This document shows, piece by piece, positions 1,300 to 26,481 of a DNA stretch of 64,000 bases (position 1 is its first letter; each line of letters opens with the position of its first letter). The stretch is from Candidatus Babeliales bacterium (GTDB taxonomy: Bacteria > Babelota > Babeliae > Babelales > JANWKD01): the NCBI GenBank assembly GCA_963722075.1, contig CAVRJM010000001.1:128001-192000 (forward strand). The letters run 5' to 3'. The notes beneath the pieces are model-generated. The model saw nothing but the letters and a program-made list of their open reading frames with translations. It was not told the origin of the DNA and ran no database searches. Made by a program: the position numbers and the translations under genes.

Positions 1300-1569
1300 T
1301 TACATGAATGAAGAGACTTGGATAGTGCGAATTTGACCTTCTTCAGTTTCCATAATGATAAGGTCATTACCAATTTCTTTGATGTTCCATTTGGCAAGCG
1401 TATCGGCGGCATTCTGGGGCTGTTCTTTTTTGATTTCTTCTTTTGGTTTTTCGACAGCAAATTCAAATGGATTTCTTACTTTATTTGAAGCAGCTGATAA
1501 GGTGAGCACACAGATAAATAAACTGATATTGCGCTTACAAAGTTCGGATAAATTCATAAAGAAATTCAT
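1300..1569 (-). CDS. PilP-like small pilus/secretion assembly protein
   Basis: RNPF motif plus short beta C-terminus; coupled to a PilO-like gene. Confidence 0.45.
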   Translation of the reverse strand: MNFFMNLSELCKRNISLFICVLTLSAASNKVRNPFEFAVEKPKEEIKKEQPQNAADTLAKWNIKEIGNDLIIMETEEGQIRTIQVSSFM

Positions 1570-2144
1570 AAGGGCTCCTTAATATCAGTTATGCTAAACA
1601 GCAAAGAAAGGGTGAGATTGTTACTATTACTACTTAAGGTGACTTTTTTTATATGGGTAAGGTTATGTTCATGTAAGGCTGAAAAAAAAGAAAGAATCTG
1701 ATTAAAATCTCCGGTGTAATCAGTGTGAAATAGATGGGAGGTATACCATTTTTTTTGAATGGTCTCTAAGGGAGTATGATTGAGAATAGTAAGATTATTT
1801 TTTTGTGCCAACTGAAATACAATACGTAATACCTCATGTATTGATTTATGATTTCTTTTATGCCTATTAACATCTTGCTGCAAGGTAGCAATACGCCGTG
1901 CTGATTTTTTACGAAGCTGTTTATTTTTGATCTGTAATGATTTTTTGGTATTTTGTAATTGAGTTAATGCTGTTACTTGTGCTGTATTAGCATGTATATA
2001 TGATTGTACTGTTTGATATACGCATATAAACCATACGATCATGATGAGGCATAAAATTCCCGTGGTAATCCAGTAGTATAACCGTTTGGGTATTTGAAGC
2101 AGCGCATAGGTACATTTATTCAGGCGAAAGAAAAAATCGATCAT
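1566..2144 (-). CDS. PilO/GspM-like inner-membrane assembly protein
   Basis: N-terminal TM, coiled coil, C-terminal YTGDFNQILSFFSAL motif. Confidence 0.6.
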   Translation of the reverse strand: MIDFFFRLNKCTYALLQIPKRLYYWITTGILCLIMIVWFICVYQTVQSYIHANTAQVTALTQLQNTKKSLQIKNKQLRKKSARRIATLQQDVNRHKRNHKSIHEVLRIVFQLAQKNNLTILNHTPLETIQKKWYTSHLFHTDYTGDFNQILSFFSALHEHNLTHIKKVTLSSNSNNLTLSLLFSITDIKEPL

Positions 2145-2167: not shown

Positions 2168-3373
2168 TTAAAAATTAGGCTTTATCCATTGCATAGGATC
2201 TACTGGTATATTATTAATTCTCATCTCCCAATGTAAATGATATCCACTTGCATACCCAGTTTTGCCTAATGTGCCAATAGGATTTCCTCGTTTAATTTTA
2301 TCGCCCACCGCTATGTCAGCAAAATTATCTAAATGATAGAAAAGTGAAAATACTCCGTATCCGTGATCAATAACGATAGTATTACCGCTATGCCCGTATC
2401 TGTTTTTTATGATGACAATACCATCTTGGGTAGCCCATACCACCGATTTAGGGGTATTAAGAACATCTACTGCTTTATGTGCATAGCGTCCTCGTTCTTG
2501 GGTAGTGCGTACGGTACCATATTCAGTTGAAATACTTTTAATATCAATTGGTGGGTAAAAAATTCCCTGCCATAATTTTTCTTGTGGTGAGCGTGGTAGT
2601 AATTCTTCAACATCACGTTCTAATTGAGCAGCGGCTAAACCAGCTTCTTTTTCTTCTTGTGCTTTAGTGGCATCTACATGTAAATTTTGCTTTTTAAATT
2701 GAAATGCAACGATTTGAAATTTAGTTTCAAGAGTCATGGAATTACCTACTTGATCGTTAACTTCTACGGTTAACAAATACTCATTAGGTGTTTCTTCACA
2801 TTCAATAGGGATAAACGCTTCGTAAATAGGTGAATTTTTAGATTCTTGAAATGCCGGATACCGATGCGAAAGGGTAGTTACCCATGCTGATTTTATTTCT
2901 TTATTCACTTGGAATTGAATATGAAGCGTTCTTCCTTGAAACACTTTATATTCTGATTCAGGTCGTATAAACGCTGCTTGTAAGGGCGTGTTATCAACAA
3001 CGAAAGGTATTTCTTTTACTGTTTTTTCTTGTTTATAAGTGCCATTAGTAACTTCTGCTTTAAGGATATGGGATCCGTTTGATAAGGTACGTGTTGAAAT
3101 AAAGAATGGATGTTCACAAGATGTTGAATTGATTTTAAATTTATTAATGAGTAATTTGCCATCAAGCCATACCGAAATATCAGCTACTTTATAATTATCA
3201 TGCGCATTTAAGACACATTGAACATCGTCTGCATAAAAATGATGATCATTAATACCAATTACCAATAATTCAGGTATATGAGTATCAAAAAAATAATGAT
3301 AACTTTTCCAGCCTAAAAAGAAAAAAATAATTAAACCAATTAACGATACAACGTGTAAAATACGAAAATTCAT
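2168..3373 (-). CDS. M23 family metallopeptidase
   Basis: HKAVD, YHL and HLHWE motifs; N-terminal TM and Ig-like region. Confidence 0.9.
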   Translation of the reverse strand: MNFRILHVVSLIGLIIFFFLGWKSYHYFFDTHIPELLVIGINDHHFYADDVQCVLNAHDNYKVADISVWLDGKLLINKFKINSTSCEHPFFISTRTLSNGSHILKAEVTNGTYKQEKTVKEIPFVVDNTPLQAAFIRPESEYKVFQGRTLHIQFQVNKEIKSAWVTTLSHRYPAFQESKNSPIYEAFIPIECEETPNEYLLTVEVNDQVGNSMTLETKFQIVAFQFKKQNLHVDATKAQEEKEAGLAAAQLERDVEELLPRSPQEKLWQGIFYPPIDIKSISTEYGTVRTTQERGRYAHKAVDVLNTPKSVVWATQDGIVIIKNRYGHSGNTIVIDHGYGVFSLFYHLDNFADIAVGDKIKRGNPIGTLGKTGYASGYHLHWEMRINNIPVDPMQWIKPNF

Positions 3374-3823: not shown

Positions 3824-5473
3824 ATGGCTAATTATATTTTAAGGAGTTACAAATTGGTCATATCGCCTTTATCATTTGTTTTTATTATGAGCATTCTTTC
3901 AATGGTAACCATTTCAGGGCAACAAACTATTCCTGGTACCAATAATAAATTAACCTATGATGATTTTTTTACGCGTTACCAACAAGGGCAGATGGTCAAT
4001 GCACATACTAAAAACGATTTGCCTGCAGCATGCAAGCAAGGAGCGGCACCGACTCTAATGAGCTTTATAAAGACGGCTTCCCCGCATGTTAATCATCCAT
4101 CTGGCGGGCAGTTATTTCCTAATGATGGGCAGCTGGGGCAGTTGCTGACGACATTTTTAACAAACCTAGAACAAGATGAAACATCACGAAATTTTACTAT
4201 TTATTTTACCAAGCTGCATTTGCTTATTTTGCATCAGCTTTATATCTACCTAACTAAAATTTATACCGTTTTTAATATGTCTCATATAGATGCAATCCAA
4301 AAGTATTTAACCTTAGATGCCAAACAAGCGCTCAGTAAAAAAACATTAATAATTAATCATTTAATTAATATTATCGAAATGCAATCCAATGGCGCCATTC
4401 GCGCTCGTTTTCCTTCAATACCTAAGCATTTGGCCACCTATACAGGTAATATGTTAATGAAGCAAGATTACGGTGCTCAATTAAGTTTAATGCTTGATAA
4501 ATCTGAAGATTTTTTACTTTCAAGTACCGATCCACAAGTAAAGGAGTTGATAACGCCAACCGTCTCTACCATGCGCGATAGTTATTTAAGTTTATTTGGC
4601 GATTATTTAAGCTTTTTCCATGAATATACCCAAACACTTAATCAAGATGATACGTCGCATGGCTATGTTGGGTTTAATACTTTTGCAAAGCATGCACAGC
4701 GAATTGGCGAGCTACTGAGTGGAACAATTCCTGAAATGAGTACAACAATCACTAGTATACCAGAAAAAGTTGCTTGGTTGCGCTCATTAAAGAAATTAAA
4801 TCCGCCGATGTTTTTTTATGACGCTGAAACAATGCGTGGTCTTAAAATTATTCCCCATATTGCAAAATCATTACCCAAGAATGTACAAAGCATTCCATAC
4901 CCACAAAAACTCGTGGAAGATGCTAAAAAAGGAGTGCATTATCAACCTAAATTTGGTCCGCAAACCGGAATGCTCATTGCATTTTACCAAGGGGATCGCC
5001 TTTTTGTGAACATTCCTACCATGCAATATCCATATACTCAAGAATTAATACCGCAACCAGAATGGCTTAATTCATCCAGTGGGGTGATAAAAATGCTACA
5101 AGCATGCCTGGGAGACTTTTCTGCCTTATTAGATCCTGCTTTGGCAAGTGAGGATATTTTAGATCCTTGTTTACAATGTATTGTGCAAAATGCATCGATA
5201 AAAGCAGGATTAATAGCGGCAACTTCTACCACCTGCAAGATTTGTACCGCCTTTATTGATTCTATTCAAGCCGAGATTACCAATTTACAAGCGAAACATA
5301 TTGTGACTCCAAGTGGTCCTTCGGGTGGTGGTATTTCAACAGGCGGTACTGGAACGGGAGGCGGTGGCATTTCAACAGGCGGAACGAGTGATGGCTCGGG
5401 CGGTCTATCGACCGGCGGTCTTTCAACTAATCCTTCAAATAATCAAACGGGATCTATAGGAACGGGGCAATGA
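3824..5473 (+). CDS. Large hypothetical exported protein with two CxxC motifs and a Gly-rich tail (start uncertain)
   Basis: 549-aa ORF; hydrophobic N-terminus; GGISTGG repeats; ATGA overlap with the next gene. Confidence 0.8.
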   Translation: MANYILRSYKLVISPLSFVFIMSILSMVTISGQQTIPGTNNKLTYDDFFTRYQQGQMVNAHTKNDLPAACKQGAAPTLMSFIKTASPHVNHPSGGQLFPNDGQLGQLLTTFLTNLEQDETSRNFTIYFTKLHLLILHQLYIYLTKIYTVFNMSHIDAIQKYLTLDAKQALSKKTLIINHLINIIEMQSNGAIRARFPSIPKHLATYTGNMLMKQDYGAQLSLMLDKSEDFLLSSTDPQVKELITPTVSTMRDSYLSLFGDYLSFFHEYTQTLNQDDTSHGYVGFNTFAKHAQRIGELLSGTIPEMSTTITSIPEKVAWLRSLKKLNPPMFFYDAETMRGLKIIPHIAKSLPKNVQSIPYPQKLVEDAKKGVHYQPKFGPQTGMLIAFYQGDRLFVNIPTMQYPYTQELIPQPEWLNSSSGVIKMLQACLGDFSALLDPALASEDILDPCLQCIVQNASIKAGLIAATSTTCKICTAFIDSIQAEITNLQAKHIVTPSGPSGGGISTGGTGTGGGGISTGGTSDGSGGLSTGGLSTNPSNNQTGSIGTGQ

Positions 5474-7263
5474 GAATAATAAAAACGATGTTTTTATGTT
5501 ACTTATATTTAAATAATAACTTAGTTTTATCCGTTACTCACGAAATAGAAAAAATTATTGCCAACGTGTACGGCTCGGTGGGTATTAATAGTATGGAGCC
5601 AGAACTACATAAAATTCGAGAAATGCTTATTACCATTTCGCAGGCTACCCATTGTCAATTATTTGAGATTGCACAATTAGTGCGTGAAGATATAGAGCAG
5701 CTATTACAGCATTTAGAAGAAGAAATTAAAGAACAAGATGAACAACACAAAATGGTGGGAACGCATCGATTTTTTAAGAGGTTTTATTACCAAACGCAGC
5801 TTGAACATATATCTGCCTATAGTAACCAGCTTTATAAAAGCTTTCCTTTTTTAGAACAAATCACTTGCATGGTAAAAAAAATAACAAACCCCATTACTTC
5901 ATTATTTCAAAAAGAAGAAGGGAAGCTTTCTTTTCAAGAAATGGGGGCAAATCAGATACTTGATTATATGCAATTTGAACAAGAAATGTTATCGCATTAT
6001 AAAAATTTGCTTACGTTTTTTGCAGCAATTAAAAGAAATCAACTACCCGCAATTATTAATACCTGGTCAACTAGATCGGTGCAACACGCAGCGGCAATGC
6101 GTGTTCGCCATCTAGAGCCTCAGATACAAATGCAGCAATTTGAAGAGATTTTTGCTATTGCATTACAATCCTATATCATGGCGGGTGGCGGCATGTATAC
6201 GCAATGGATTGATGAACAAGATCAACTTGAATATAAAAAACTTTCTGATGAGCAAAATCAAATCCGATCTGATTTTGAACTCTATTTGCATAATATAAAA
6301 ACTGCTCAAGAGACAATTACTAAAAAAATCCTCAATGGGTTTCAACAGGGCATGAAAGATATTGGCGCAGATTATAAAAAAGCTAATAAAGAGCAAGAAG
6401 ATGAACAGGTATATTTATTTAAATCGATCAACCTAGATTACCCTATTGTTCGTGCTTTAAATCTGCCGCCCATTCCTTTTGATCAGATTTTTGCAGCAAG
6501 TATTATGAGTACGCCAGCACGACACCGATGGTATAACATGTATCAATACGGTGACTGGGAATTTGACGCAAAAAGAAATAGCTTTTGGCAAAATGGATTA
6601 GTCTTATTTGGCATTCCATTTTGGCAGGCAACTGATAAAACAGATCAATCACTTATTTCTGATCCTTCACAAAATAGTATCTTTACTGAATACATTAGTA
6701 ATGATGCATCGTATGACATTGTAGTAGAATGTACGCTTGTTAATGCGCAATATCCCTTTTTTGTAGGCCTATTATTTAATAGAGCGCGTTGGATTTCTGC
6801 TGATCCTGAACGAATTTGGCAATATCGATTGGTTGGCTTATACGGTACACAACTAAAACCGGATGACCCAAATACCCGTACCATTAACCTTTGTTTTGCA
6901 CAGCAAATTCTTGCCACTGTCAACAAGCAAGAGAATATTATTTCACCATTGCAGCAAATAACAACGAGCAATAAAAGTTTATTTCAATTGTCCGCTGCTG
7001 ATGCTAAAACGTTAATTAAAGATTCTCTTACATATCGTTTTGAAATTAATGTTGCGCCGACGAACGTTACGATAACGTTACTCAGTAAAGATGGTACTAA
7101 ACTATATAGTAATACACTGAATAATCTTGATCCATATCTTGCAATTTTTAATGGTATTGGATTTATGGCGGCAGGATGTCAGGCTGAATTTAAAATTATT
7201 AAACCAGAACAGCTCGTTTACACGGCAGCTGAATGTAAAGAATTTCTGGAGACACATACATGA
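5470..7263 (+). CDS. Large hypothetical exported protein with coiled coil and C-terminal lectin-like beta-sandwich
   Basis: 597-aa ORF; ATGA overlaps on both sides; C-terminus paralogous to part of 7260-11888. Confidence 0.8.
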   Translation: MRIIKTMFLCYLYLNNNLVLSVTHEIEKIIANVYGSVGINSMEPELHKIREMLITISQATHCQLFEIAQLVREDIEQLLQHLEEEIKEQDEQHKMVGTHRFFKRFYYQTQLEHISAYSNQLYKSFPFLEQITCMVKKITNPITSLFQKEEGKLSFQEMGANQILDYMQFEQEMLSHYKNLLTFFAAIKRNQLPAIINTWSTRSVQHAAAMRVRHLEPQIQMQQFEEIFAIALQSYIMAGGGMYTQWIDEQDQLEYKKLSDEQNQIRSDFELYLHNIKTAQETITKKILNGFQQGMKDIGADYKKANKEQEDEQVYLFKSINLDYPIVRALNLPPIPFDQIFAASIMSTPARHRWYNMYQYGDWEFDAKRNSFWQNGLVLFGIPFWQATDKTDQSLISDPSQNSIFTEYISNDASYDIVVECTLVNAQYPFFVGLLFNRARWISADPERIWQYRLVGLYGTQLKPDDPNTRTINLCFAQQILATVNKQENIISPLQQITTSNKSLFQLSAADAKTLIKDSLTYRFEINVAPTNVTITLLSKDGTKLYSNTLNNLDPYLAIFNGIGFMAAGCQAEFKIIKPEQLVYTAAECKEFLETHT

Positions 7264-10200
7264 AAATAATAACACAGCTTATACTCATCATGGGGTTATT
7301 GATTACACCGCGCGTATGGGCGGCTTCATTTACCGTTGATACTGCTGCTTCTTCTTTTAAATATTTACAATCAGATAGTTGTAGTTTTAACGATGCGAAC
7401 AATGCAGTAACTTGTAAAAGCGCCGGTGTTTTTCAAAATGTAAAAAAGGTTACTGGTGGAACCGCGTCGACTGGGCAGCAGTTAATTGGTTCATTTGTTG
7501 ATGCTACTAATAAAAGATATGATTTATATGCAACAACACCACAACATGTTATCAAACAAACAACCGATTTATTAGCAGCTATAAAGGCGACCGCTGCTGT
7601 TTTATTTAACCCAGTGGATGTGTTATCCTCAACCACCAATGGACCAGTTGTTACTAAACCAAATCCTTATTCAATAGCTTCATTAAATGAAAAAGCTGTT
7701 AATGCTTTGTGTGGGCCACAAGGGCTCAATCTTGATGCAAAATTAATCCAATACTTTAAAAATTTCTATTTTTATCTTGAATATGTGACGCGCTTAGAAT
7801 ATGCCGCACGTATAGCAGCGCTTGCAGCGCATTATAATATTGATATGGCAACGATTCTTGATAAAAAATCATGGCCCGATTTTGTTCAAACAGTTCAAGC
7901 AAAAGCAGGAAGCTGGAATAATTTAGAAAAAGCATTATTCCAACCAACGATCACCCCTAATTACTTAGGGATTATGGGGTATATTCAAGCAACTTCATGG
8001 GATGAATTAACCACATCGCCCTTTTGGGTTAGTTTAAATACTATTACCCAAAGCAGCATTATCAAAAGCAGCTTCTGGCAAAAATATAGTAAATATATGG
8101 TGACTCGTTCTTTTGTACAGGATCAAACGTTATTACTTTCAATTAAAGAAGTTGAAGAGACTATTTTTAAGTATATTCCTAATATCGAAGTTGCGTATTA
8201 CAATCCAGATTTTACTGCATTGCGTAATGCAACTGAAATGTTTCATATAAGTTTACTGCTTACTGATGCACAGCGATTGCGTATTATCCCCTCATGTATC
8301 GATTGGAGCATGCTTAAAGATGCGCAAAATACTGTTGATCTTACTCAAATCTATACGGCATCGCTTGAATTTAAGCAAACACCATTCTATTCAATTGCTG
8401 CAATGGCAGAAGATAATAGCCAAGCAGTATATACAAGCGTAGAACAGAATAAAGTTTCGGTGGATATTAATCTTTTTAAGCAAGAACCATTATTACAAGA
8501 AGAGTTGATCTTATTAAGTATGATCAAGGTGCTGCATGGATTAACTAATTATTTATACGATACTGATCATTTAGAAAAAACAATGGATGTATTAGCAAAT
8601 AAAAATATTATACAGCCCATACCGTCAATTTTTATTTACGCTCCTGAGGATTTTTTATATTTAGAAGATCTTAATTTGCTGCACAACAATTTTAAACAAT
8701 TAGCAACCAATACTACACCCGCTACTACAACTGAACAAAAAAAACAGGTTGTTCAGCATATGATGACGAGCATGTCGCAGCAAAAATCATCATCGACACC
8801 AAAAAATGTAGAAATGCAATTTGGATTTAGTGATTTATGGAACGGCGTGAAGGATAGCGCGGAAAGCACGTGGGATGTGGCTAAATCGGTAGGCCAAGAA
8901 GCAGTGTCTTTTGCAGAAGACGCCGGTAAAAAGGTAGCTAAAGAGGCAGAACAGTTAGGATTTGGAAAAGCGGTAGTAATGTTGGCAGGTATGTCTATAA
9001 AAGATGCACAACATCTATTGGATTCAGCAAAAAAAATTGAAGAATCGGTAGCAAGTGAGATTAAAGACGGTATGAAAACCGCCTCCAACTTTGTAACCGA
9101 TTTGCAAGATGAAGCGGAAAAAGGAATCAAAAAAATGGCTGATGCTATTACGGGTGGTTGTGAAACGGTTACCTTGCATTTTGATTCGGAATTATGCAAA
9201 TCGATTGGCGGTGCTATTCAAAGTGTTGCTGATATCGTGGTTACCGGTATTGCTGGTGATGTCTTAATGTATCTGAAGGCAATTGGTGGTATGATACAAT
9301 TAACGGCTGATGGTATAGATTTAATTGCGACAACGGCCGTTGACGTAGTTTCTGGCAATTGGGGTGCCATAGGAGGGGATTTAAAAAACGGTCTTCTTTC
9401 AATGGCGGCCGATGCAGCGGTGGTAGTATTGGAACCACTCCTTATCCAATTTAAGTATTTTATGCAACAATTAATGAATGCTATTCAATTTTGCCAATAC
9501 TTTATTTCTATTTTAACCCGTATATTTATAGATGCGACTACTGCCGTTGCTTACGCGCTGGGTGCGGAAGTAAGCATGTTTGGCAGCTTATTTGGCGTAA
9601 ATATTAATCCTAGTGACTGGGCAGATACGGTTGATACCGCTTTGAGTGAACATGAACGGTTAATTGGTACCTGTATTACCACTGCCTTATTATTGGCAAC
9701 CGTACCGTTAACCGGTGGCGCATCGATACCGCTCTTAGTGATGACGCTGGGGCCGCAGCTTTTTGCTATTTATGGAAGCTATCAAGATGATCAACTCGCC
9801 ATTGAGCAAAAACAAGAAGAAAAGGAATTTGTGCAAAGTTTTTCAACATATGTACAAAATAATAAAGTGATTGTTGCACAACAACAACAAGATTGGGCAG
9901 CAGAATTACATGATAAATATGAATCTGAGCTTGAAAATCAGGAACGTGGTTTAGGATTTTACGAAAACTTATTAGCGCATAATTTTGAAGCATTAAAAGA
10001 ACAAATGTCAACGGCGTTGGGTTCCTATTGGTCACAATTATTTACTCCCGATTCGCTCAATGAAATTCCAGCGCAAGTCGGGTCACTTTATGGCTTTAAT
10101 ACTAATGTATATGAGCTTAATCCATCTCAAGGATTTTCATTATATAGTGCTGCACGCAATAGTTTTAGCCAAGAAATAGCAGTATATCCAGCAATTGCTG

Positions 10201-11888
10201 TTCCTGGCCAAGGCGGATCATTTACCACGGTGGCAGAAACAAAAAATTGGTTTAATCAAAAAGAGATAGCAATTTTAGATACTGATGCTTCTGAAGTGGA
10301 AGTACGCATTAAGCCATTATATATACTAACAACGTTTCATGTTGGGCTCTATTTTGGTGGTGAATTTATTGATATTGATGCCGTTAAAAAAACCAAAGAA
10401 GCGCCTATTGATTTTGCTCATTTAGCTAAAATGGCGGTATTTAAAAAAGAGGATCAAAATAAACCGGTTAGTTTTGGTATTTATGAGCATGAAGGTAATG
10501 GATGGCTTGCCAATTCAGTAACAGCGCCAGCTTTCCAATTAGGGCAGTGGTATCATATTAAAATGCGCTTATCTGGAACTAACTTATCAGTAAAAATATG
10601 GGCAGAGCCAGAAACAGAACCAGCTACTGATTTTTCATATACCGTAACCGTTTCTCCTTCGCAGAAAATAATTGGGGTAATTTCTTCCGGTGCGTCAGTG
10701 GAATATCAATTTATTAATCCGGCAGTTACTATTACACCAATACCTACATCAAAACCGCCATATTCATTACGGCCAGCAGATAAGTTTTGTGCGTTGCCGT
10801 GTGATTACGCAAATGCAACCTGGCAATCGATTGCGGTGGAACGTGATCGTGAACAGATTGCTCGTGGGCAGATGGATTATTTAACAGCGCCGCAAGCAGG
10901 AATTACCATTGTTGATAAGAGTAACATTTTACGTGGGCAATATATGTATACCACGAATGCTACCAATTTGGTTATTAATGGTAAAAATGTAGAAGATTAT
11001 GTGGTGATGTGCAATATGCAGGATATTGGAACAACTCCTTCGGTAGTTCCTCAATCCATTGGTCAACCACTCAGCAATCTTAATCAAATGCCAGGGACGC
11101 CGTATTTAGCGAGCCTTATTAGTGAAAATACGTTTGATTTTAAAGGCAATTCCAATAACATGAATTTAACTGATTTATTCAGCACCTATTCTACGCAATT
11201 TGGTCCATTTAATGATACGCTATACAATCAATTACAAACGGCGCGAAAAGAATATAAGAATCAAGCGCTTTCGTTTACCTTTGGTTCATTTAAATTACAA
11301 GCAATTGCATCTGAAATTCCTAAAAATATATTTATTTATACTACACCATTGGTTGATGAAAATGGTAAACCAATTAAAGATGCAAAAGGAACACAATTAA
11401 CTGATTATTTCTTACTGACCGAAATTACTTCAGGCCCTTCACCAAGTTATAGTAAAAAGCGCGGAAATCCTGGTATTAGTTATAGTACTATGCTTGCTGA
11501 TAAATCAGTACAATATGGGGTTATTAGTTTAATATCTGGTAATTTATACGGCTCATCAAGTGCAAAGCCTGTAAGTTCAGGATTCTCGCGTTCAATTCTT
11601 CTTAGGAATTTTAATCAGCACAATCAACTTGATCCCGCTATTAAAGCAACCATTGAAACAACTCAGACTGCATATGATACGTATGTAAATGTACAAGAAA
11701 ATACACCAACGCCAAATACCGGATCTGCTTCGCAAGGAACGAATCCTTCTGACGCGGGAACAAAAACTGATCATAAAGGGACCGGAACGGGTAATCCAGT
11801 GCCGCCACAACCGCCTGCTAATAATAGTATTCAACAGCGCACCAATGATGCCAGCGGTGGCCAAATCACCTTTGGCGGGCCGCCGTAA
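7260..11888 (+). CDS. Very large secreted hypothetical protein with hydrophobic helices, coiled coil and ConA/LamG-like domain
   Basis: 1542-aa ORF; signal peptide ending VWA; FQLGQWYHIKMRLSGTNLSVKIW motif. Confidence 0.85.
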   Translation: MKIITQLILIMGLLITPRVWAASFTVDTAASSFKYLQSDSCSFNDANNAVTCKSAGVFQNVKKVTGGTASTGQQLIGSFVDATNKRYDLYATTPQHVIKQTTDLLAAIKATAAVLFNPVDVLSSTTNGPVVTKPNPYSIASLNEKAVNALCGPQGLNLDAKLIQYFKNFYFYLEYVTRLEYAARIAALAAHYNIDMATILDKKSWPDFVQTVQAKAGSWNNLEKALFQPTITPNYLGIMGYIQATSWDELTTSPFWVSLNTITQSSIIKSSFWQKYSKYMVTRSFVQDQTLLLSIKEVEETIFKYIPNIEVAYYNPDFTALRNATEMFHISLLLTDAQRLRIIPSCIDWSMLKDAQNTVDLTQIYTASLEFKQTPFYSIAAMAEDNSQAVYTSVEQNKVSVDINLFKQEPLLQEELILLSMIKVLHGLTNYLYDTDHLEKTMDVLANKNIIQPIPSIFIYAPEDFLYLEDLNLLHNNFKQLATNTTPATTTEQKKQVVQHMMTSMSQQKSSSTPKNVEMQFGFSDLWNGVKDSAESTWDVAKSVGQEAVSFAEDAGKKVAKEAEQLGFGKAVVMLAGMSIKDAQHLLDSAKKIEESVASEIKDGMKTASNFVTDLQDEAEKGIKKMADAITGGCETVTLHFDSELCKSIGGAIQSVADIVVTGIAGDVLMYLKAIGGMIQLTADGIDLIATTAVDVVSGNWGAIGGDLKNGLLSMAADAAVVVLEPLLIQFKYFMQQLMNAIQFCQYFISILTRIFIDATTAVAYALGAEVSMFGSLFGVNINPSDWADTVDTALSEHERLIGTCITTALLLATVPLTGGASIPLLVMTLGPQLFAIYGSYQDDQLAIEQKQEEKEFVQSFSTYVQNNKVIVAQQQQDWAAELHDKYESELENQERGLGFYENLLAHNFEALKEQMSTALGSYWSQLFTPDSLNEIPAQVGSLYGFNTNVYELNPSQGFSLYSAARNSFSQEIAVYPAIAVPGQGGSFTTVAETKNWFNQKEIAILDTDASEVEVRIKPLYILTTFHVGLYFGGEFIDIDAVKKTKEAPIDFAHLAKMAVFKKEDQNKPVSFGIYEHEGNGWLANSVTAPAFQLGQWYHIKMRLSGTNLSVKIWAEPETEPATDFSYTVTVSPSQKIIGVISSGASVEYQFINPAVTITPIPTSKPPYSLRPADKFCALPCDYANATWQSIAVERDREQIARGQMDYLTAPQAGITIVDKSNILRGQYMYTTNATNLVINGKNVEDYVVMCNMQDIGTTPSVVPQSIGQPLSNLNQMPGTPYLASLISENTFDFKGNSNNMNLTDLFSTYSTQFGPFNDTLYNQLQTARKEYKNQALSFTFGSFKLQAIASEIPKNIFIYTTPLVDENGKPIKDAKGTQLTDYFLLTEITSGPSPSYSKKRGNPGISYSTMLADKSVQYGVISLISGNLYGSSSAKPVSSGFSRSILLRNFNQHNQLDPAIKATIETTQTAYDTYVNVQENTPTPNTGSASQGTNPSDAGTKTDHKGTGTGNPVPPQPPANNSIQQRTNDASGGQITFGGPP

Positions 11889-12534: not shown

Positions 12535-13041
12535 TTACCGTGCTATTTTCAATTCAGTAACTGCCTTATCAAGGATTCCATTAATGAATTTATAGGCATC
12601 TTTCTCAGCAAAGCATTTAGCTAGTTCTATAGCCTCATTAATGGCAATGGTAGAAAGGATATCGGTGTTTAATAATTCCCATATTGCATAGCGCAAAATA
12701 AGTTTGGTACACACACCGAGTCGATCAAATCGCCAGTTGCTTAAAAATGGTTTATAAATATCATCAAGTTCATGACGAGAATCAATTATAACACGGGCAA
12801 TCGAAACAACATCGCTATCAAATGGAATGTCTAAATTAAATCCACGATTAACGTTATCTACAATTGCTTCTAATGAAATATCATAATCAAATGATTCTGC
12901 GATATATAAGAGATGAAAAACAACGGATCTTTTTTCTCGTTGATTTAAATCAGTAAACGCTTTCTCCTGATCTTCCTGTATAGGTTCAGGAGTTGCTAAT
13001 GGCTTATTGGGATCTGATGAAAGTTCTAAGCAATGTGACAC
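12535..13041 (-). CDS. nusB: Transcription antitermination factor NusB
   Basis: WRFDRL, ILRYAIWEL, AINEAIELAK, KFINGILD. Confidence 0.95.
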   Translation of the reverse strand: MSHCLELSSDPNKPLATPEPIQEDQEKAFTDLNQREKRSVVFHLLYIAESFDYDISLEAIVDNVNRGFNLDIPFDSDVVSIARVIIDSRHELDDIYKPFLSNWRFDRLGVCTKLILRYAIWELLNTDILSTIAINEAIELAKCFAEKDAYKFINGILDKAVTELKIAR

Positions 13042-13062
13042 CGGATAATTCCTTTTTATAAA

Positions 13063-13629
13063 TTATTTTTTTACGCGTTCGATGTATTTAGAATCTCTTG
13101 TGTCAACTTTAATAATTTCGCCTTCCTCAACAAATAAAGGAACTTGTAATACTAAACCGGTTTCTAAGGTAGCTGGTTTGGTTGCGCCTCCTTGAGCTGT
13201 ATCGCCACGTACACCGGGTGGCGTTTCAGTGACTTTGAGTTCCATGAAAAGAGGAGGATTAACAGCAATTGCCTTGCCAGAAAAATAAAGAACGTTGTAA
13301 ACTTCTTGTTCTTTAAGAAACTGTTCAACTTCTTCTATTTGATCTTTAGATAAAGAAACTTGTTCAAAACTATCTTGATCAAGGAAATGATAATGATCGC
13401 CATCGGTGTATAAATATTGCATGTTTTTATATTCTAAATCAGGAACTTCTAACTTTTCGCCAGACCTAAAGGTCTCTTCACGTACCAGGCCTGTAATCAT
13501 GTTTTTCATTTTCGTTCTAATATAAGCGCCGCCTTTTCCTGGTTTAACCCATTGAAAATCGACTACCATATATGGCTCGCCACGAAATAAAATCTTAGAT
13601 CCTTTTCTGAAGTCAGAAGTGGAGATCAC
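13063..13629 (-). CDS. efp: Elongation factor P
   Basis: KPGKGGA, PGVRGDT, KPATLETG. Confidence 0.97.
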   Translation of the reverse strand: MISTSDFRKGSKILFRGEPYMVVDFQWVKPGKGGAYIRTKMKNMITGLVREETFRSGEKLEVPDLEYKNMQYLYTDGDHYHFLDQDSFEQVSLSKDQIEEVEQFLKEQEVYNVLYFSGKAIAVNPPLFMELKVTETPPGVRGDTAQGGATKPATLETGLVLQVPLFVEEGEIIKVDTRDSKYIERVKK

Positions 13630-13709
13630 GCTCAGTACCTTTCAATAAAATAGTTATAAACCTTCTTTATTGTAGCTAATAAAAATTAATATGAAAAGCT
13701 TAAATACTA

Positions 13710-14111
13710 CTATTTATTAAATTTTGTATGCCACCAGTAGGAAAATCCTATACAGCAACCAGCGCCAATAATTTTGGGAAGTATCCCAAAGAATACTGAA
13801 TCTACTATTTTAACTTTCTCTTTAAATTCTTTTCTAACTTGGAAATTGGTATGCGCGGTTTTAAATGTCTCTGGTTCTTTAGAATTATTAAATTGCTGAG
13901 TGGCGTTTTGGTGCTTTTTTATGGCAGTGCGATAATTCATAATTTGATTTACGTTATTGCCGATAGAGAATAACAAAGCTGCGCTTGTAAAAAGGGCAAT
14001 ATTTGGAATCGTGCAATACTGATCAAGATATGATTTAATGCCGCCTTGGCTCAAAATTGGATGAATATTGCATATTGAGAGTAGAAAAATTAAGATTAAA
14101 AACTTTTTCAT
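13710..14111 (-). CDS. Hypothetical secreted/membrane protein
   Basis: Signal-like MKKFLILIFLL; C-terminal TM. Confidence 0.65.
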   Translation of the reverse strand: MKKFLILIFLLSICNIHPILSQGGIKSYLDQYCTIPNIALFTSAALLFSIGNNVNQIMNYRTAIKKHQNATQQFNNSKEPETFKTAHTNFQVRKEFKEKVKIVDSVFFGILPKIIGAGCCIGFSYWWHTKFNK

Positions 14112-14121
14112 ATGAATACCA

Positions 14122-14505
14122 TTATTTAAAAGGACAGACTTCACTTAATAAACGAGAGGATTTAGCTGTATGCTTACAATATCGATTGCAAATTGACCAA
14201 TTTAATTTTCGCCGATGTGCAAGCTCTTTGGCTGTTAAATATTCATGTCCGAAATGATTAAAAAAGAAAGAACCCATAAAAAAGTTATTAAAAAATAATG
14301 CGCGGCAAGTCTGAGGCATTTTTTTAAATAATTGAGGAATAAGCAAGAAGCTATTGAAGGCAGCCGAAAGCATAAAAGGGTGTTCATAAGCAATCAAAGC
14401 AGCTTTTTTTTTGATACGCTCTTCCTGTTGAATATCCATAGCAAAAAGCGATGAAACGCTTGCAATAAAAAATGCAATAAATAAAAATAATTTTTTATAT
14501 CCCAT
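14122..14505 (-). CDS. Hypothetical secreted/membrane protein
   Basis: Signal peptide ending SLFA-MD. Confidence 0.65.
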   Translation of the reverse strand: MGYKKLFLFIAFFIASVSSLFAMDIQQEERIKKKAALIAYEHPFMLSAAFNSFLLIPQLFKKMPQTCRALFFNNFFMGSFFFNHFGHEYLTAKELAHRRKLNWSICNRYCKHTAKSSRLLSEVCPFK

Positions 14506-14751
14506 TATAACCCCCAAAAAGAGTAGTTTATACGTGCTTCTTACTAAATAATATACTTTTTTAAAATATTTGTAAAATTATCTCTAATATGTTTCTATTT
14601 GAAATAATGAATAATTCAGTTTGTAATAATCATTCCTGATTTTGTATATTATATTGTAAAATTTATAAATTTCATTATAATAAATAGTAATTAAAAATAA
14701 TGAGCCTATGCCAAGGCTACGGCTAGGCAGACTTAATGGAGTATATTTTTT

Positions 14752-15147
14752 ATGAAATTACTATATTTATTTATAGCCCTTGGTTTATGCAGTCCCATCT
14801 TGGCTATGAACAAATGGAGAAGCGTCAAATCATTCGCCCACAAGACATCAGTGGCTACTTATAATAAGTCTTATCAAGCATTACAAAAAACCCCTTGGTT
14901 TCAAAAAACCAAGCAATTCTTTAATGCGCAACAAACAACCGATAGTTCTCCTGAAAAGATGGAGAAGATTTTTATTGCTATTGGTAGTAATCAAATGGTT
15001 GAAGCAGAAGTTAAAATCACCAAAAAGTTAAGCTGGTATCAACATCATCCCTTTAAATTTGCTGCATGGGTAGGGGCAGGTAGTTTTCTTACCGGGTCTA
15101 TTTTTGGGTGGCAGGTAAAAAAGCGATTGAGCAAGAAAAAAGGATAA
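14752..15147 (+). CDS. Hypothetical secreted protein with C-terminal TM
   Basis: Signal ending ILA-MN; GGAG RBS. Confidence 0.7.
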   Translation: MKLLYLFIALGLCSPILAMNKWRSVKSFAHKTSVATYNKSYQALQKTPWFQKTKQFFNAQQTTDSSPEKMEKIFIAIGSNQMVEAEVKITKKLSWYQHHPFKFAAWVGAGSFLTGSIFGWQVKKRLSKKKG

Positions 15148-15335
15148 ATAATATGGTAATTAATTTCTTAAAAAAAATAATGCTGATATTACTAATTATA
15201 GCATTTCCTTTACAAACTCATGCTTCTTTATTTTCGTATAATCTATTTTCAAAAATTCCCAACGTTTGTCAGAGTGTATATGAAAAATGTAATGAATATA
15301 ATATCGGTATTGCTATAGGAATAAGTTTATTATTA

Positions 15336-16482
15336 CAGGACTTACGCATTGGTCGAAAGTTCTGATTGGGACTTGAAATAAATAAAAAAGGGTGCTTCAA
15401 TTTTGTGAATTAAACAACAAAAGCAAAAAAGAAGGACACCCGAAATGAGAATAACAAATACAAATGAAGAATCAAGCACACCAAAATATGTAATGGGTTT
15501 ATTAAAAACAACGGCACGAAAAGTTTGCACAAATATTTCTGAAACACTGGGAATAATGCATGATGTGCTCAATAGGGAAGTTGAAAAAGCAGCCCAGAAT
15601 GCAGCAGAAATAACAAGCTCATTACAAAATGTTGCTCTAGAAAGTCTTAGCAATTGCGAAAGATATTTGATAATCGATGATACTCCCGTAAATAAGCAAT
15701 ATGCTAACGATATTGAAGGATTAGAAATTGTTTATGATAGTAGTGAGAAAAGATCAGCTTTGGGATTACGGTCTGTAATTGGCATGATCACTGATACCAG
15801 AGTAAGAATACCGATTGATGCGGAGATTATGATAAGCAAAGTATTTGGAGAAACCAATTACAAGACAAAAAGTGAAATTGCTTACATTATTATAGAGCGT
15901 GTTCTAGGATCAATTCGGTTTAATTGGTTAATTGCAGATGCCCATTATGCGACTGAATACCTTCTGCCAAAGCTTTTTAACAGGTCAATAAAATTTCTGA
16001 TGAAAATTCCCAGAAATCGCGTTGTTACTATTAACAATAAAACAGGACAATTGCAAAAAATTTTACGTTTGAAAAAAAATAACAGATTTGCTTGTGGATA
16101 CGGCACTATTTTTGGTCTTTCCTGTTATTTCTATGTGTTAAAAATTGATAAGGAAAAAATTATGTATCTTATCAGTAGCCATCAGCTCGGCAAAGAGAAG
16201 CTAATTTCTACATATAAGATTCGTTGGCAAATTGAATGCTTCAATAGAACTGCCAAACAACTTCTTGGATTCAGCGAATGCCAAATGCGTTCTTTTAACA
16301 TGCAGCGTGCGCATTTACTTTTCGTGTTATGGGCTTATGCTTTAGCCGACATAAGGCGGGTAAAAGATAATTTCGACAATACTGAACAAGCTGTCAGATC
16401 CTTTCGGGTCGCAAAACCCCCTACACCATCTAGTTTATTTTATGCTTTTGAAGAGAACTCTTATGCTCTTGCGTAAGTCCTG
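15336..16482 (+). mobile_element. Insertion sequence, DDE IS701/IS4-like, 1147 bp
   Basis: Perfect 13-bp TIRs CAGGACTTACGCA/TGCGTAAGTCCTG; 6-bp TSD TTATTA. Confidence 0.92.
15445..16476 (+). CDS. DDE transposase
   Basis: LIIDDT, IADAHY and YKIRWQIECFNRTAKQLLG motifs. Confidence 0.92.
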   Translation: MRITNTNEESSTPKYVMGLLKTTARKVCTNISETLGIMHDVLNREVEKAAQNAAEITSSLQNVALESLSNCERYLIIDDTPVNKQYANDIEGLEIVYDSSEKRSALGLRSVIGMITDTRVRIPIDAEIMISKVFGETNYKTKSEIAYIIIERVLGSIRFNWLIADAHYATEYLLPKLFNRSIKFLMKIPRNRVVTINNKTGQLQKILRLKKNNRFACGYGTIFGLSCYFYVLKIDKEKIMYLISSHQLGKEKLISTYKIRWQIECFNRTAKQLLGFSECQMRSFNMQRAHLLFVLWAYALADIRRVKDNFDNTEQAVRSFRVAKPPTPSSLFYAFEENSYALA

Positions 16483-23708: not shown

Positions 23709-23811
23709 GTCATTCTGAGATCTTGCTTTGCAAGATCGTGAGAATCCAGTTATAAAATATAAAGACTTTTTTATTTATTTACTGGATCCCCACGCTAGCG
23801 CTCGGGATGAC
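23709..23811. repeat. Inverted pair of GTCAT...ATCCAG repeats upstream of bamA
   Basis: gtcattctgag..gtgagaatccag / ctggatccccacg..ctcgggatgac. Confidence 0.8.
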
Positions 23812-23847
23812 GTCTGGGTTGGTTCTGGTAGCTTAGGAGCGTATAAT

Positions 23848-26481
23848 ATGACATCGGTGCTGATGAACGTACTGTTATTTTTTTCATTTTTCTTTTCAAT
23901 TCCTTGTATTGTATATGCAGATAGTGATACTAAATCACCTGAACCCATTGCTTTAGAAGAGGATTTATGGCGCATAACAGAACCACAACAACAACCCCCT
24001 GCATTGCCTGTTGAACCCATATACGATAATGCAGATGACGTTTCAATTGTATCGCAACATAAATTAAAAGATAAAGCTGAAAAAACAACTAACAATGATA
24101 TGAATCCACAAGACAGGATGGTCCCTGCAAAACCGCTTATTAATGATATTATCATTATTGGCAATAATCAGGTAGGTACTGATGCAATTCTTAATAAAAT
24201 TCCCTATCACGTTAATGAAGAATATACACCGATCAAATCAAAATCCCTTATTTCAAACCTAATGGAGATGGGATACTTTAAAAACGTATCGCTTAAAGGG
24301 GAATTACTTCCGGATAATAAAATAAATCTATATGTGATACTAGCAGAAAAACAACCACTTAAAGAGGTGATTTTTAAAGGGAATAAGCATTTATTAGAAA
24401 AAGATATAAAGAAAAAAATTAAATTTAATGAAAAACCCGCTATTGATGAAAGTGATCTTAAAAAATTTATTAATGACCTTAAAAAATTATATAGAGAAAA
24501 AAACTACCATAACGTTGAAATCGAAGCACAGCTAGAAGATGCTGGCCAGGGTAAGGTAAATGCCGTTTTTACCATTACTGAAAATAAAAAATCTGCTGTT
24601 CAACGAGTTTTTTTTGAAGGGAATAAAGCATTTTCTGATAAAGAGTTACGGGGCCTCATATTCACGCGTGAAGATTGGGTATTAGGGTTTATGGATAAAG
24701 CTGGTTTTTATCAGCCAGAAGCAATCGAAGCAGATCGCCATATGTTGGAAAATTTTTACCAAAGCCGAGGGTATTTAAATGCAAAAGTAACTGATGTTGA
24801 AATACAGCCTGATGTGCAGGATCCTTATAATATGAAAATAACATTTCATATTCTTGAAGGCGATCTTTATACCGTACGCGATATTAAAGTAGCGGGTAAT
24901 GATGCTGTTTCTGAAGCGGAAGTTTTAAGTCGATTACCCATAAAATCAGGTGATTTATATTCTAAAGAAAAAATTCGTGATTCAATTGAATTAATACGCT
25001 TACTACTGGGGGAATATGGCTATATTTATGCCGATGTTGATCCTTCTATTGAACCCGATAATGAAAATAAGACGGTAAATATCACCTTCTTTACTGAATT
25101 AGGTGATAAAATTACCGTTCGTAAAATTGAAATTCGTGGTAACCAAAAGACGCGCCAAAAGATTATTCGTCGTCAATTATTATTTGATGAAGGTGATTTA
25201 TTAACAACGCAACGCCTTGAAAAATCAAAAGAACGGGTAGAACAATTGGGTTATTTTGATCAACAAAATGGGGTGAGTTGGAAACTTAAGCGGGTAAATC
25301 AGGATATTGCCGATTTAGAACTTTTTGTAAATGAGGTTAAAACAGGGCGTGTAGATATGCAACTAGGTTTTGGTGGTTCGCCGCGTGATTTACAAAACCC
25401 TACCGAATCGTTACGTATTGGTGGGTCTATTTCTGATACAAATTTACTTGGCCTTGGTATTGGATTTAATTTAAGTGGTGAATTTTCAAAGCAAGAACGG
25501 CAACTTCTTTTCAATATTACTGAACCGTGGCTTTTTGATCGTCCTATTTTTGCAGCGCTTGATTTAGCAATCAAAAAATCATTATATGAAGATTTTCAAT
25601 TTACCAAAAATGAAGTAAAAGAGCAGTTGGTAAATGGCTCATTTAGTGTTGGTTTTATTTCTCAAAAATTAAATATGACGCGCTTCCTTTTCCTTTTTGG
25701 GGTAGAAGGGTTGCATTATAATCAACCACCTGAAGTAAACCCAGCCTCAATACCAGATCCAAAGGAAGCGGCAGAATTTACGATGATTCTACAGCGCCGT
25801 TTTCCGCAAGGTAGTTTTGCCTGGACTGGTGCACAAGCAAGCCAGGATTTTCGTAATCATCCGCTGCACCCCAGCCGTGGATATCAATGGCTTATTCAAA
25901 CACGTATGGGCATTCCTAATAGTGGTCATTTTCATTTAGCTTCCGCACCGCAAGCATCTGCCTTCAATTTTGGATTCTGGAAACTAGATGGCGATGCCAG
26001 CTATTATACGCCATTAATTGGTGAACGTGATTTAGTATTTTACTTCCATACCCATTTTGGCATTGTGGGATCATTCCCGGGGAAAGTAATTCCATTTAGG
26101 GAATTGTACCATATTGGTGGTCCGGCCAGTGTTAGAGGGTTCTTATTTGGTGAAATTGGGCCCACCTTCAAAGGCGTCGATTCTATTGGTGCTAAAAAAG
26201 CATTTTGGTTTAACGCTGAGTTAATTTTCCCGGTAGCTCCTGACTTTTCTATTAAAGGAATCGTATTTTATGATGGTGGTGCTGGATGGGATACGCCTGA
26301 TTCGCAAGCAATTTCCAAAAAACGGCTTAAAAATAATAGCTTTAACTATCGTCATTCAGTAGGATTTGGGGTGCGTTTATTGAGGCCTACGCCAATGCGT
26401 ATTGATTGGGGTTTCAAGCTTGATAAACGTAAGGGCGAATCACCGAGTGAAGTACATTTGACGATGTCTCATGATTTCTAA
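23848..26481 (+). CDS. bamA: Outer membrane protein assembly factor BamA
   Basis: POTRA repeats, VRGF motif, C-terminal F; AGGAG RBS before 23848. Confidence 0.93.
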   Translation: MTSVLMNVLLFFSFFFSIPCIVYADSDTKSPEPIALEEDLWRITEPQQQPPALPVEPIYDNADDVSIVSQHKLKDKAEKTTNNDMNPQDRMVPAKPLINDIIIIGNNQVGTDAILNKIPYHVNEEYTPIKSKSLISNLMEMGYFKNVSLKGELLPDNKINLYVILAEKQPLKEVIFKGNKHLLEKDIKKKIKFNEKPAIDESDLKKFINDLKKLYREKNYHNVEIEAQLEDAGQGKVNAVFTITENKKSAVQRVFFEGNKAFSDKELRGLIFTREDWVLGFMDKAGFYQPEAIEADRHMLENFYQSRGYLNAKVTDVEIQPDVQDPYNMKITFHILEGDLYTVRDIKVAGNDAVSEAEVLSRLPIKSGDLYSKEKIRDSIELIRLLLGEYGYIYADVDPSIEPDNENKTVNITFFTELGDKITVRKIEIRGNQKTRQKIIRRQLLFDEGDLLTTQRLEKSKERVEQLGYFDQQNGVSWKLKRVNQDIADLELFVNEVKTGRVDMQLGFGGSPRDLQNPTESLRIGGSISDTNLLGLGIGFNLSGEFSKQERQLLFNITEPWLFDRPIFAALDLAIKKSLYEDFQFTKNEVKEQLVNGSFSVGFISQKLNMTRFLFLFGVEGLHYNQPPEVNPASIPDPKEAAEFTMILQRRFPQGSFAWTGAQASQDFRNHPLHPSRGYQWLIQTRMGIPNSGHFHLASAPQASAFNFGFWKLDGDASYYTPLIGERDLVFYFHTHFGIVGSFPGKVIPFRELYHIGGPASVRGFLFGEIGPTFKGVDSIGAKKAFWFNAELIFPVAPDFSIKGIVFYDGGAGWDTPDSQAISKKRLKNNSFNYRHSVGFGVRLLRPTPMRIDWGFKLDKRKGESPSEVHLTMSHDF

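Follow-up and report, generated by a model that had tools for sequence, protein, structure and literature searches.

Within the DNA stretch considered here, a window of 64,000 nucleotides from a Candidatus Babeliales bacterium (positions 128,001 to 192,000 of contig CAVRJM010000001.1, assembly GCA_963722075.1; the source genome is 1.47 Mb in size and 99% complete), three tightly coupled genes specify a conserved three-protein system of Babeliales that is undescribed. The largest product, that of gene 3, combines amphipathic helices and a conserved hydrophobic helical hairpin with a concanavalin A (ConA)-like β-sandwich, and the gene 2 product carries a β-sandwich of the same fold. We interpret the operon as encoding a lectin-guided, membrane-engaging host-contact complex, a reading to which we assign a probability of about 0.4. 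Dependentiae/Babeliales are obligate intracellular parasites of protists and, to our knowledge, next to nothing is known of their entry into host cells or of their handling of them.

The three open reading frames (ORFs) of 549, 597 and 1542 amino acids (aa; Table 1), whose products sum to approximately 300 kDa, are joined by two 4-nt overlaps that both read ATGA, because the next ATG begins 4 nt before the preceding stop. The coupling and the sizes given in the initial annotation of this region are borne out by the ORF coordinates, as is its view that the genes form a unit. In a set of 61 genomes from this order, gene 3 has matches in 19 and gene 2 in the same 19; gene 1 matches 18 of those 19, and the lone miss falls in a genome that is 64% complete, its contig starting within gene 2. 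The order in these relatives is always 1-2-3 on a single strand, and the readable junctions in 17 related loci (where the first ATG, GTG or TTG was read as the start) are overlaps of 1-20 nt or gaps of at most 19 nt. No whole-length paralogues of genes 1, 2 or 3 were found elsewhere in the same genome. Profiles of genes 1 and 2 run against 163 other proteins, a set covering the top 150 representatives of gene 3 as well as those 2000-2700 aa long, returned no fusions of gene 2 or gene 1 to gene 3.

Across the phylum, a profile built on residues 505-1475 of gene 3 matches 52 of 261 genomes, all of one order, and 44 of the 189 with a completeness of 90% or more. Presence is patchy by family: the profile matches 4/4 genomes in family f1, 14/14 in f6, 15/16 in f13, 8/10 in f11, 2/4 in f2, 1/1 in each of f9 and f10, and 6/41 in f3, with no match in f19 (0/80), f12 (0/35), f7 (0/12) and others. 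Against 1.84 billion representative proteins, the gene 3 profile returned 375 matches at E ≤1e-3 and 124 at E ≤1e-30, the latter all being full-length gene 3 relatives or fragments of them; a word-based search of 5.8 billion clusters recovered 19, namely gene 3 itself and 18 others, none of which has a Pfam domain or a name beyond 'hypothetical protein'. Across these searches the family is restricted to Babeliales and lineage-specific. The sequencing runs listed as containing it are DNA runs from soil and peat metagenomes, with no RNA run among those listed. Gene 3 is also divergent: in the same 10 genomes, its identity to the window protein is 28-52%, as compared with 46-77% for the neighboring M23 peptidase (whose gene can be aligned in 17 operon loci). 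The operon therefore evolves faster than its neighbor, as expected for a host-interaction factor, and the comparative pattern fits such a factor better than it fits a core envelope part.

Family searches uphold the earlier statement that the proteins belong to no recognizable family. Pfam and NCBIfam gave no match above threshold for genes 1-3 or for 17 gene 3 and 16 gene 1 homologues (for the latter, Pfam gave none at 0.01), the only sub-threshold matches of the three proteins being to SO2946-like_C (E 0.075) and the NCBIfam entry FDP_fam (E 0.02). Sequence and profile searches of the PDB yielded nothing better than E 0.009, with those matches corresponding to designed helical bundles, and the ESM Atlas returned no usable match for gene 3 or gene 1. 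Among PHROGs, a tape-measure family (phrog_1272) matches gene 3 at E 3.6e-4, over residues 495-743 only; we reject the assignment of gene 3 as a phage tail tape measure protein, as we judge the match compositional and the operon is flanked by M23, NusB and EF-P genes, without phage genes. Full-text literature searches yielded no description of the operon, although supplements of the papers recovered might list its genes as hypothetical proteins.

The sequences of all three proteins are of a type that we infer to be exported. The bacterium is a diderm, since the window encodes BamA (23728-26481). Gene 3 begins with a signal peptide, and the gene 1 product has a hydrophobic stretch at residues 12-30 (score 2.2 on the Kyte-Doolittle scale, 19-residue window). 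The initial annotation had described all three N-termini as hydrophobic, which holds for genes 1 and 3; the N-terminus of gene 2 is only weakly so in this genome, scoring below 1.5 on the same scale, but its aligned homologues have plain signal-type N-termini.

Features suggestive of membrane contact lie in the central helical region of gene 3. An AlphaFold2 model of residues 505-1475, built from 17 sequences, has a mean predicted local distance difference test (pLDDT) score of 63.5, and portrays residues 505-909 as long helices at pLDDT 26-49. An Ala/Asp/Gly/Lys-rich amphipathic part is followed by a hydrophobic hairpin of the form HER-17 hydrophobic residues-TGG-19 hydrophobic residues, in which G820 is invariant; the peptide singled out earlier from this region, ALLLATVPLTGGASIPLLVMTLG, lies at residues 808-830. 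This segment is the hydrophobic maximum of mature gene 3 in 17/17 homologues (19-residue Kyte-Doolittle score 1.69-2.75). The hairpin tip lacks Lys and Arg in the 13 homologues in which it is short, and the flanks are mostly net acidic (N side 10/17, C side 13/17 homologues), a distribution of charge that is unlike that of a cytoplasmic loop. The proposed order of an amphipathic helix followed by hydrophobic ones is thus seen here, but of the several hydrophobic helices that had been reported only the hairpin is conserved as such, with segments 652-670 and 711-729 being amphipathic and carrying 1-9 charges in homologues. Apart from the N-termini, nothing else in the operon proteins is strongly hydrophobic. 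In family f6 (loci L019, L022, L025 and L028), an insertion of approximately 190-340 residues falls exactly at the hairpin tip (window position 9705-9730); it is rich in Ala, Glu, Lys and Thr, helical, and net acidic (19-33 Lys+Arg vs 34-52 Asp+Glu).

The helices that precede the hairpin have distant profile matches (E 1e-13 to 1e-8) to giant proteins, the matched parts of which carry repeats of the Baculo_PEP_C, ApoLp-III, Apolipoprotein, phasin and chlorosome-envelope types, and a profile search of PDB sequences with gene 3 gave a weak match to apolipophorin-III (1eq1, E 0.097). Neither gene 3 itself nor its 16 homologues has a Pfam match to ApoLp-III or Apolipoprotein. Residues 505-795 resemble apolipophorin-III, exchangeable apolipoproteins and Baculo_PEP_C repeats in composition and in their predicted long amphipathic helices; unlike gene 3, however, apolipophorins have neither a hydrophobic hairpin nor a lectin head.

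The clearest structural result concerns the β domains. Both gene 2 and gene 3 contain a two-sheet jelly-roll β-sandwich that places them, at the fold level, in the ConA-like superfamily; AlphaFold2 modeling and structure searches confirm in both genes the ConA-like domain proposed earlier. The closest known systems are domains of the ConA-like lectin/glucanase superfamily, which include the CBM66 of Bacillus subtilis (4b1m), the thrombospondin C-terminal L-lectin-like domain (2rhp/1ux6), ECA2234 (3mep), legume lectins and galectins. In BFVD, a set of viral structures, the named matches are phage tail, structural or lectin-type proteins, which we read, without ranges for individual matches, as probable ConA-like jelly-rolls. 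None of the three proteins matches a ConA-like Pfam family (DUF1080/LamG-type) above the gathering threshold. In both models the β-sandwich is preceded by a long helix and, unlike in known ConA-like proteins, the operon domains end long helices in two co-encoded exported proteins. The clostridial neurotoxin heavy chain shows the same order, with long translocation helices followed by a lectin-like jelly-roll, but the operon proteins lack its protease and β-trefoil as well as any sequence relation to it, and the jelly-roll alone truly matches: Foldseek comparisons with full-length neurotoxin chains cover ~550 columns at TM-scores of 0.08-0.16 and root-mean-square deviations of 28-32 Å. The operon proteins are not relatives of clostridial neurotoxin.

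The models further point to a common plan for gene 2 and the C-terminal half of gene 3, in which a Gly-rich hydrophobic helix or hairpin is followed by a helix of 70-100 residues and a ConA-like sandwich. The gene 2 model (16 sequences, mean pLDDT 80.3, predicted TM-score 0.47) consists of helices up to residue 213 that mostly reach pLDDT 80-95, a Gly-rich helix at 224-242 (about 40), a single 73-residue helix at 249-321 (about 60-73) and the sandwich at 345-581, an arrangement that agrees with the earlier remark that gene 2 repeats the order of gene 3. Segment 222-246, the counterpart of the gene 3 hairpin, is weakly hydrophobic in 16 homologues. The two β domains have identical top four structural matches, and their last strands align in a profile-profile comparison (hhalign, probability 51%, E 1.5e-4, 71 columns), itself a weak match; because of these shared matches and this alignment, we regard gene 2 as a shorter version of the gene 3 C-terminal plan.

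Complex prediction lends weak support to binding between the two proteins. Fragments of gene 3 (795-1170) and gene 2 (224-597) scored 0.47 (runs of 0.56, 0.47 and 0.04), against a best of three of 0.00 for the controls; at least 1% of contacts agree among the runs, with partner pLDDT at or above 69. Of 157 solved complexes, 116 attained the pass mark, as did 2 of 215 mismatched pairs, with scores at or below 0.60 accounting for only 18 of the 157 and for both of the passing mismatches.

Taken together, the parasitic lineage, patchy presence, fast divergence, giant proteins of exported type, lectin-type heads and low-complexity tails lead us to favor a role in host interaction. We propose that the three proteins, exported by Sec, act as one extracytoplasmic complex, in which gene 2 and gene 3 probably pair along their helical stalks to give a two-headed lectin-like unit. 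After export, the heads would bind glycans on a host membrane, either the protist plasma membrane or that of the phagosome, and the amphipathic helices and hairpin of gene 3 would then dock on or insert into the bilayer so as to anchor to, permeabilize or breach it. That such contact culminates in a pore seems to us improbable. We give similarly low odds to a stronger proposal, namely that the operon specifies a novel membrane-breaching machine, a Sec-exported, lectin-guided α-helical insertion complex that is unrelated to ClyA, colicins, Tc toxins or type III translocons and with which some Babeliales would dock on and open the phagosome or plasma membrane of the protist; here, the conserved hairpin would be driven into the bilayer as an apolipophorin-like bundle unfolds on it.

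Several considerations weigh against a lectin-guided host-contact complex. The helical region of gene 3 that bears the claim is modeled at low pLDDT, and the hairpin may sit in a soluble bundle; a Sec-exported protein with so hydrophobic a hairpin could also stay in the bacterium's own inner membrane, and the f6 insertion is hardly compatible with a tip that crosses a target membrane. The apolipophorin-type matches involve low-complexity helices, for which composition may be the sole cause. A ConA-like fold is not proof of sugar binding, which we infer from the models, and the complex prediction supports gene 3/gene 2 pairing only weakly, with one of the three runs at 0.04. Few of the α-helical pore formers known from diderm bacteria carry Sec signals, and we found neither a TolC-type outer-membrane protein (PF02321) nor VirB4 (PF03135) in this genome. 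Some of these points feed the main rival explanation, possible if rather doubtful, that of a self-anchored envelope complex. The hairpin would in that case be two Sec-inserted transmembrane helices in the inner membrane with a cytoplasmic tip. The products of genes 1 and 2 and the two large parts of gene 3 would remain in the periplasm as a trans-envelope or peptidoglycan/glycan-binding structure that may reach the surface, with no attack on a host membrane. The cleavable-type signal is in keeping with this arrangement, as are hairpin arms of 17-22 residues that, with a score of up to 2.75, are at least as hydrophobic as the signal peptide; the f6 insertion would fit readily in the cytoplasm but could hardly be moved across a target membrane, net acidic hairpin flanks are expected outside the cytoplasm, and the operon always adjoins the EnvC-like M23 peptidase gene. 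However, the Lys/Arg-free tips and the acidic f6 insertions oppose the positive-inside rule, and the M23 gene is found in all five operon-less genomes considered, beside uvrC in three of them, which points to conserved gene order rather than a functional link. A core envelope part, moreover, would not be absent from 209 of 261 genomes or outpace its neighbor in divergence.

We consider it very unlikely that the operon instead encodes a lipid-binding or -scavenging complex, whose helices and hairpin would bind lipid surfaces such as host membranes, lipid droplets or vesicles and extract or carry lipids for a parasite of scant metabolism, while the heads provide targeting. The apolipoprotein-, phasin- and chlorosome-envelope-type repeats carried by the distant matches are all lipid-surface coats, the 1eq1 match is of the same kind, and the organisms depend on their hosts, according to part of a study of a cultured member (PMC6561590); this likeness is nonetheless compositional and indirect, no lipid-transfer fold was recognized, and nothing in the operon hints at uptake. 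Least credible of all, to the point that we give it almost no weight, is a true ClyA-family bi- or tripartite α-pore-forming toxin of the Hbl, Nhe, AhlABC, SmhABC or YaxAB kind, the likeness suggested in the initial annotation. There are parallels in the three coupled genes, the long helices, the proposed stepwise assembly on a membrane and the presence of a hydrophobic, potentially membrane-inserting hairpin in one subunit (gene 3 796-836, in 17/17 homologues); a review of the ClyA family describes tripartite members as well as a hydrophobic or foot domain that inserts into membranes (PMC9558359). Pfam models of the ClyA family (HlyE/Bacillus_HBL type) nevertheless gave no match for the three proteins at E up to 1, nor did the 17 homologues of gene 3 and 16 of gene 1 yield one at 0.01, in line with the absence of NCBIfam or PDB sequence matches. 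The subunits are not full-length paralogues either: genes 1 and 3 are unrelated by hhalign (probability 1.5%), and genes 2 and 3 align over only 71 columns of the β domain. ClyA-type toxin subunits are ~35-45 kDa, as compared with the 549, 597 and 1542 aa of the operon proteins, which are described as three to four times larger and which bear Sec signals in a diderm and lectin-type heads along with other domains. No ClyA-family chain is among the best 50 structure-search matches listed, these lists being filled by the β domain; a bundle comparison has no fold basis in gene 3, whose helical region falls below pLDDT 50, the helical half of gene 2 being modeled well. What survives of the earlier interpretation, then, is a coupled, putatively exported complex with lectin-type domains and a membrane-seeking hairpin, and not its ClyA-type toxin.

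In Dependentiae, a widespread group of obligate protist parasites, the operon offers a delimited three-protein unit in about one-fifth of the sampled genomes. Should the hairpin insert into host membranes, the system would represent a new family of membrane-active helical proteins; anchoring in the bacterium would instead make it a novel envelope structure in a phylum with a poorly understood envelope. In either case, the operon supplies three protein families and one repeated module that could be given definitions and names.

Table 1. Coordinates of the operon genes and of the features assigned to their products (positions in the window; residues in the respective protein).
Feature	Residues	Window position	Strand	Basis or remark
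Gene 1		3824..5473	+	549 aa ORF, ATG start
Gene 2		5470..7263	+	597 aa ORF, ATG start
Gene 2 helical half	2-321	5473..6432	+	AlphaFold2
Gene 2 ConA-like β-sandwich	345-581	6502..7212	+	AlphaFold2 and structure search
Gene 3		7260..11888	+	1542 aa ORF, ATG start
Gene 3 signal peptide, ...PRVWA/AS (cleavage VWA/A)	1-21	7260..7322	+	read from sequence
Gene 3 N-terminal domain	24-504	7329..8771	+	conserved in alignment
Gene 3 Ala/Asp/Gly/Lys-rich amphipathic helical region	505-795	8772..9644	+	composition, model
Gene 3 hydrophobic helical hairpin	796-836	9645..9767	+	conserved hydrophobicity
Gene 3 Gln/Glu-rich long helices, leading into β domain	837-928	9768..10043	+	model, low confidence to ~909
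Gene 3 ConA-like β-sandwich	934-1155	10059..10724	+	AlphaFold2 (pLDDT 80-94) and structure search
Gene 3 C-terminal region, two tandem modules	1174-1475	10779..11684	+	pLDDT 75-88
Gene 3 Thr/Gly/Pro/Asn low-complexity tail		11685..11885	+	sequence

The N-terminal domain of gene 3, for which Pfam gave no family match in gene 3 or its homologues, is conserved and has the invariant residues Y170, W273, Q274, P307, Y377, P455 and Y460. The two C-terminal modules each comprise ~130 residues with the pattern QYxYTT ... DYVV ... SLITGxxYD, and are mixed α/β in the model. Modules of this type recur in a 1934-aa ORF elsewhere in the same genome (L035:3120-8924, minus strand; G000:C1, ~458-464 kb), which contains several of them, matches the gene 3 C-terminal module by BLASTP at E 1e-4 and is without a Pfam family; in many relatives, the ~130-residue module likewise occurs in giant ORFs that range from 1,000 to 2,700 aa, the majority at about 1,900-2,700. 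Beyond the variable tail, the majority of gene 3 homologues close with a short conserved motif approximating (D/Q)R(T/Q)xxA(S/A)GGxxxxFGG (window 11830-11885), in which G1539 is invariant and which could be a sorting or docking peptide.

The gene 1 product has a conserved core with invariant Cys, Pro and Trp positions in the alignment, followed by a tail (~residues 494-549) rich in Gly, Ser and Thr. In family f13 (loci L021, L024 and L027), gene 1 is enlarged to 1169-1285 aa and gene 2 to 786-984 aa by long mid-protein insertions, the remainder being alignable. An apparent gene 1-gene 2 fusion in genome G045 (L025), a single 977-aa frame, was rejected, as the frame crosses a run of N read as X, after which gene 2 has a start and signal of its own; as this case illustrates, N runs in contigs may mislead the ORF-length columns of genome searches. 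In the closest relative, a member of the same genus (G001), gene 2 (L015:11940-13735, minus strand) is broken by one in-frame TAA at approximately codon 192, reflecting either a pseudogene or a sequencing error, and genes 1 and 3 are intact.

Upstream of the operon, and divergent from it, lies the housekeeping gene for the EnvC-like M23 peptidase (2168-3373), an assignment confirmed by Pfam both here and in three related loci. Downstream, uvrC follows the operon in 8 of 9 related loci tested; in the window its place is taken by NusB, EF-P and a DDE transposase (12535-16476, the transposase at 15445-16476), which suggests a local rearrangement. In the five genomes without the operon, the M23 protein is 43-56% identical to that of the window. 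Because the M23 gene persists, often beside uvrC, where the operon is missing, we view the operon as an insert, present in some genomes and absent from others, within a conserved stretch, so that its neighbors are uninformative as to its function; for the same reason, we reject a functional link between the operon and the M23 peptidase. A tree of M23 proteins from 22 genomes leaves the deep branches unresolved, and a single clade of operon bearers is neither demonstrated nor rejected by it (p-AU, approximately unbiased test, 0.12).

As for export beyond the periplasm, this genome has two secretin genes, which are a possible route out for the operon proteins; given these genes and the lack of TolC-type and VirB4 proteins, release would proceed by a secretin pathway or by vesicles. 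In the parts of a report on a cultured relative that bear on this point, vesicles were observed, and signal peptides are given for 44% of proteins, with enrichment among those of unknown function (PMC6561590). Finally, a 192-aa ORF downstream of the M23 gene (window 1566-2144, minus strand) has a sub-threshold match to PilO (E 5e-4), and in the three related loci examined (L015, L017 and L044) the M23 gene is followed by an ORF of 203-205 aa.

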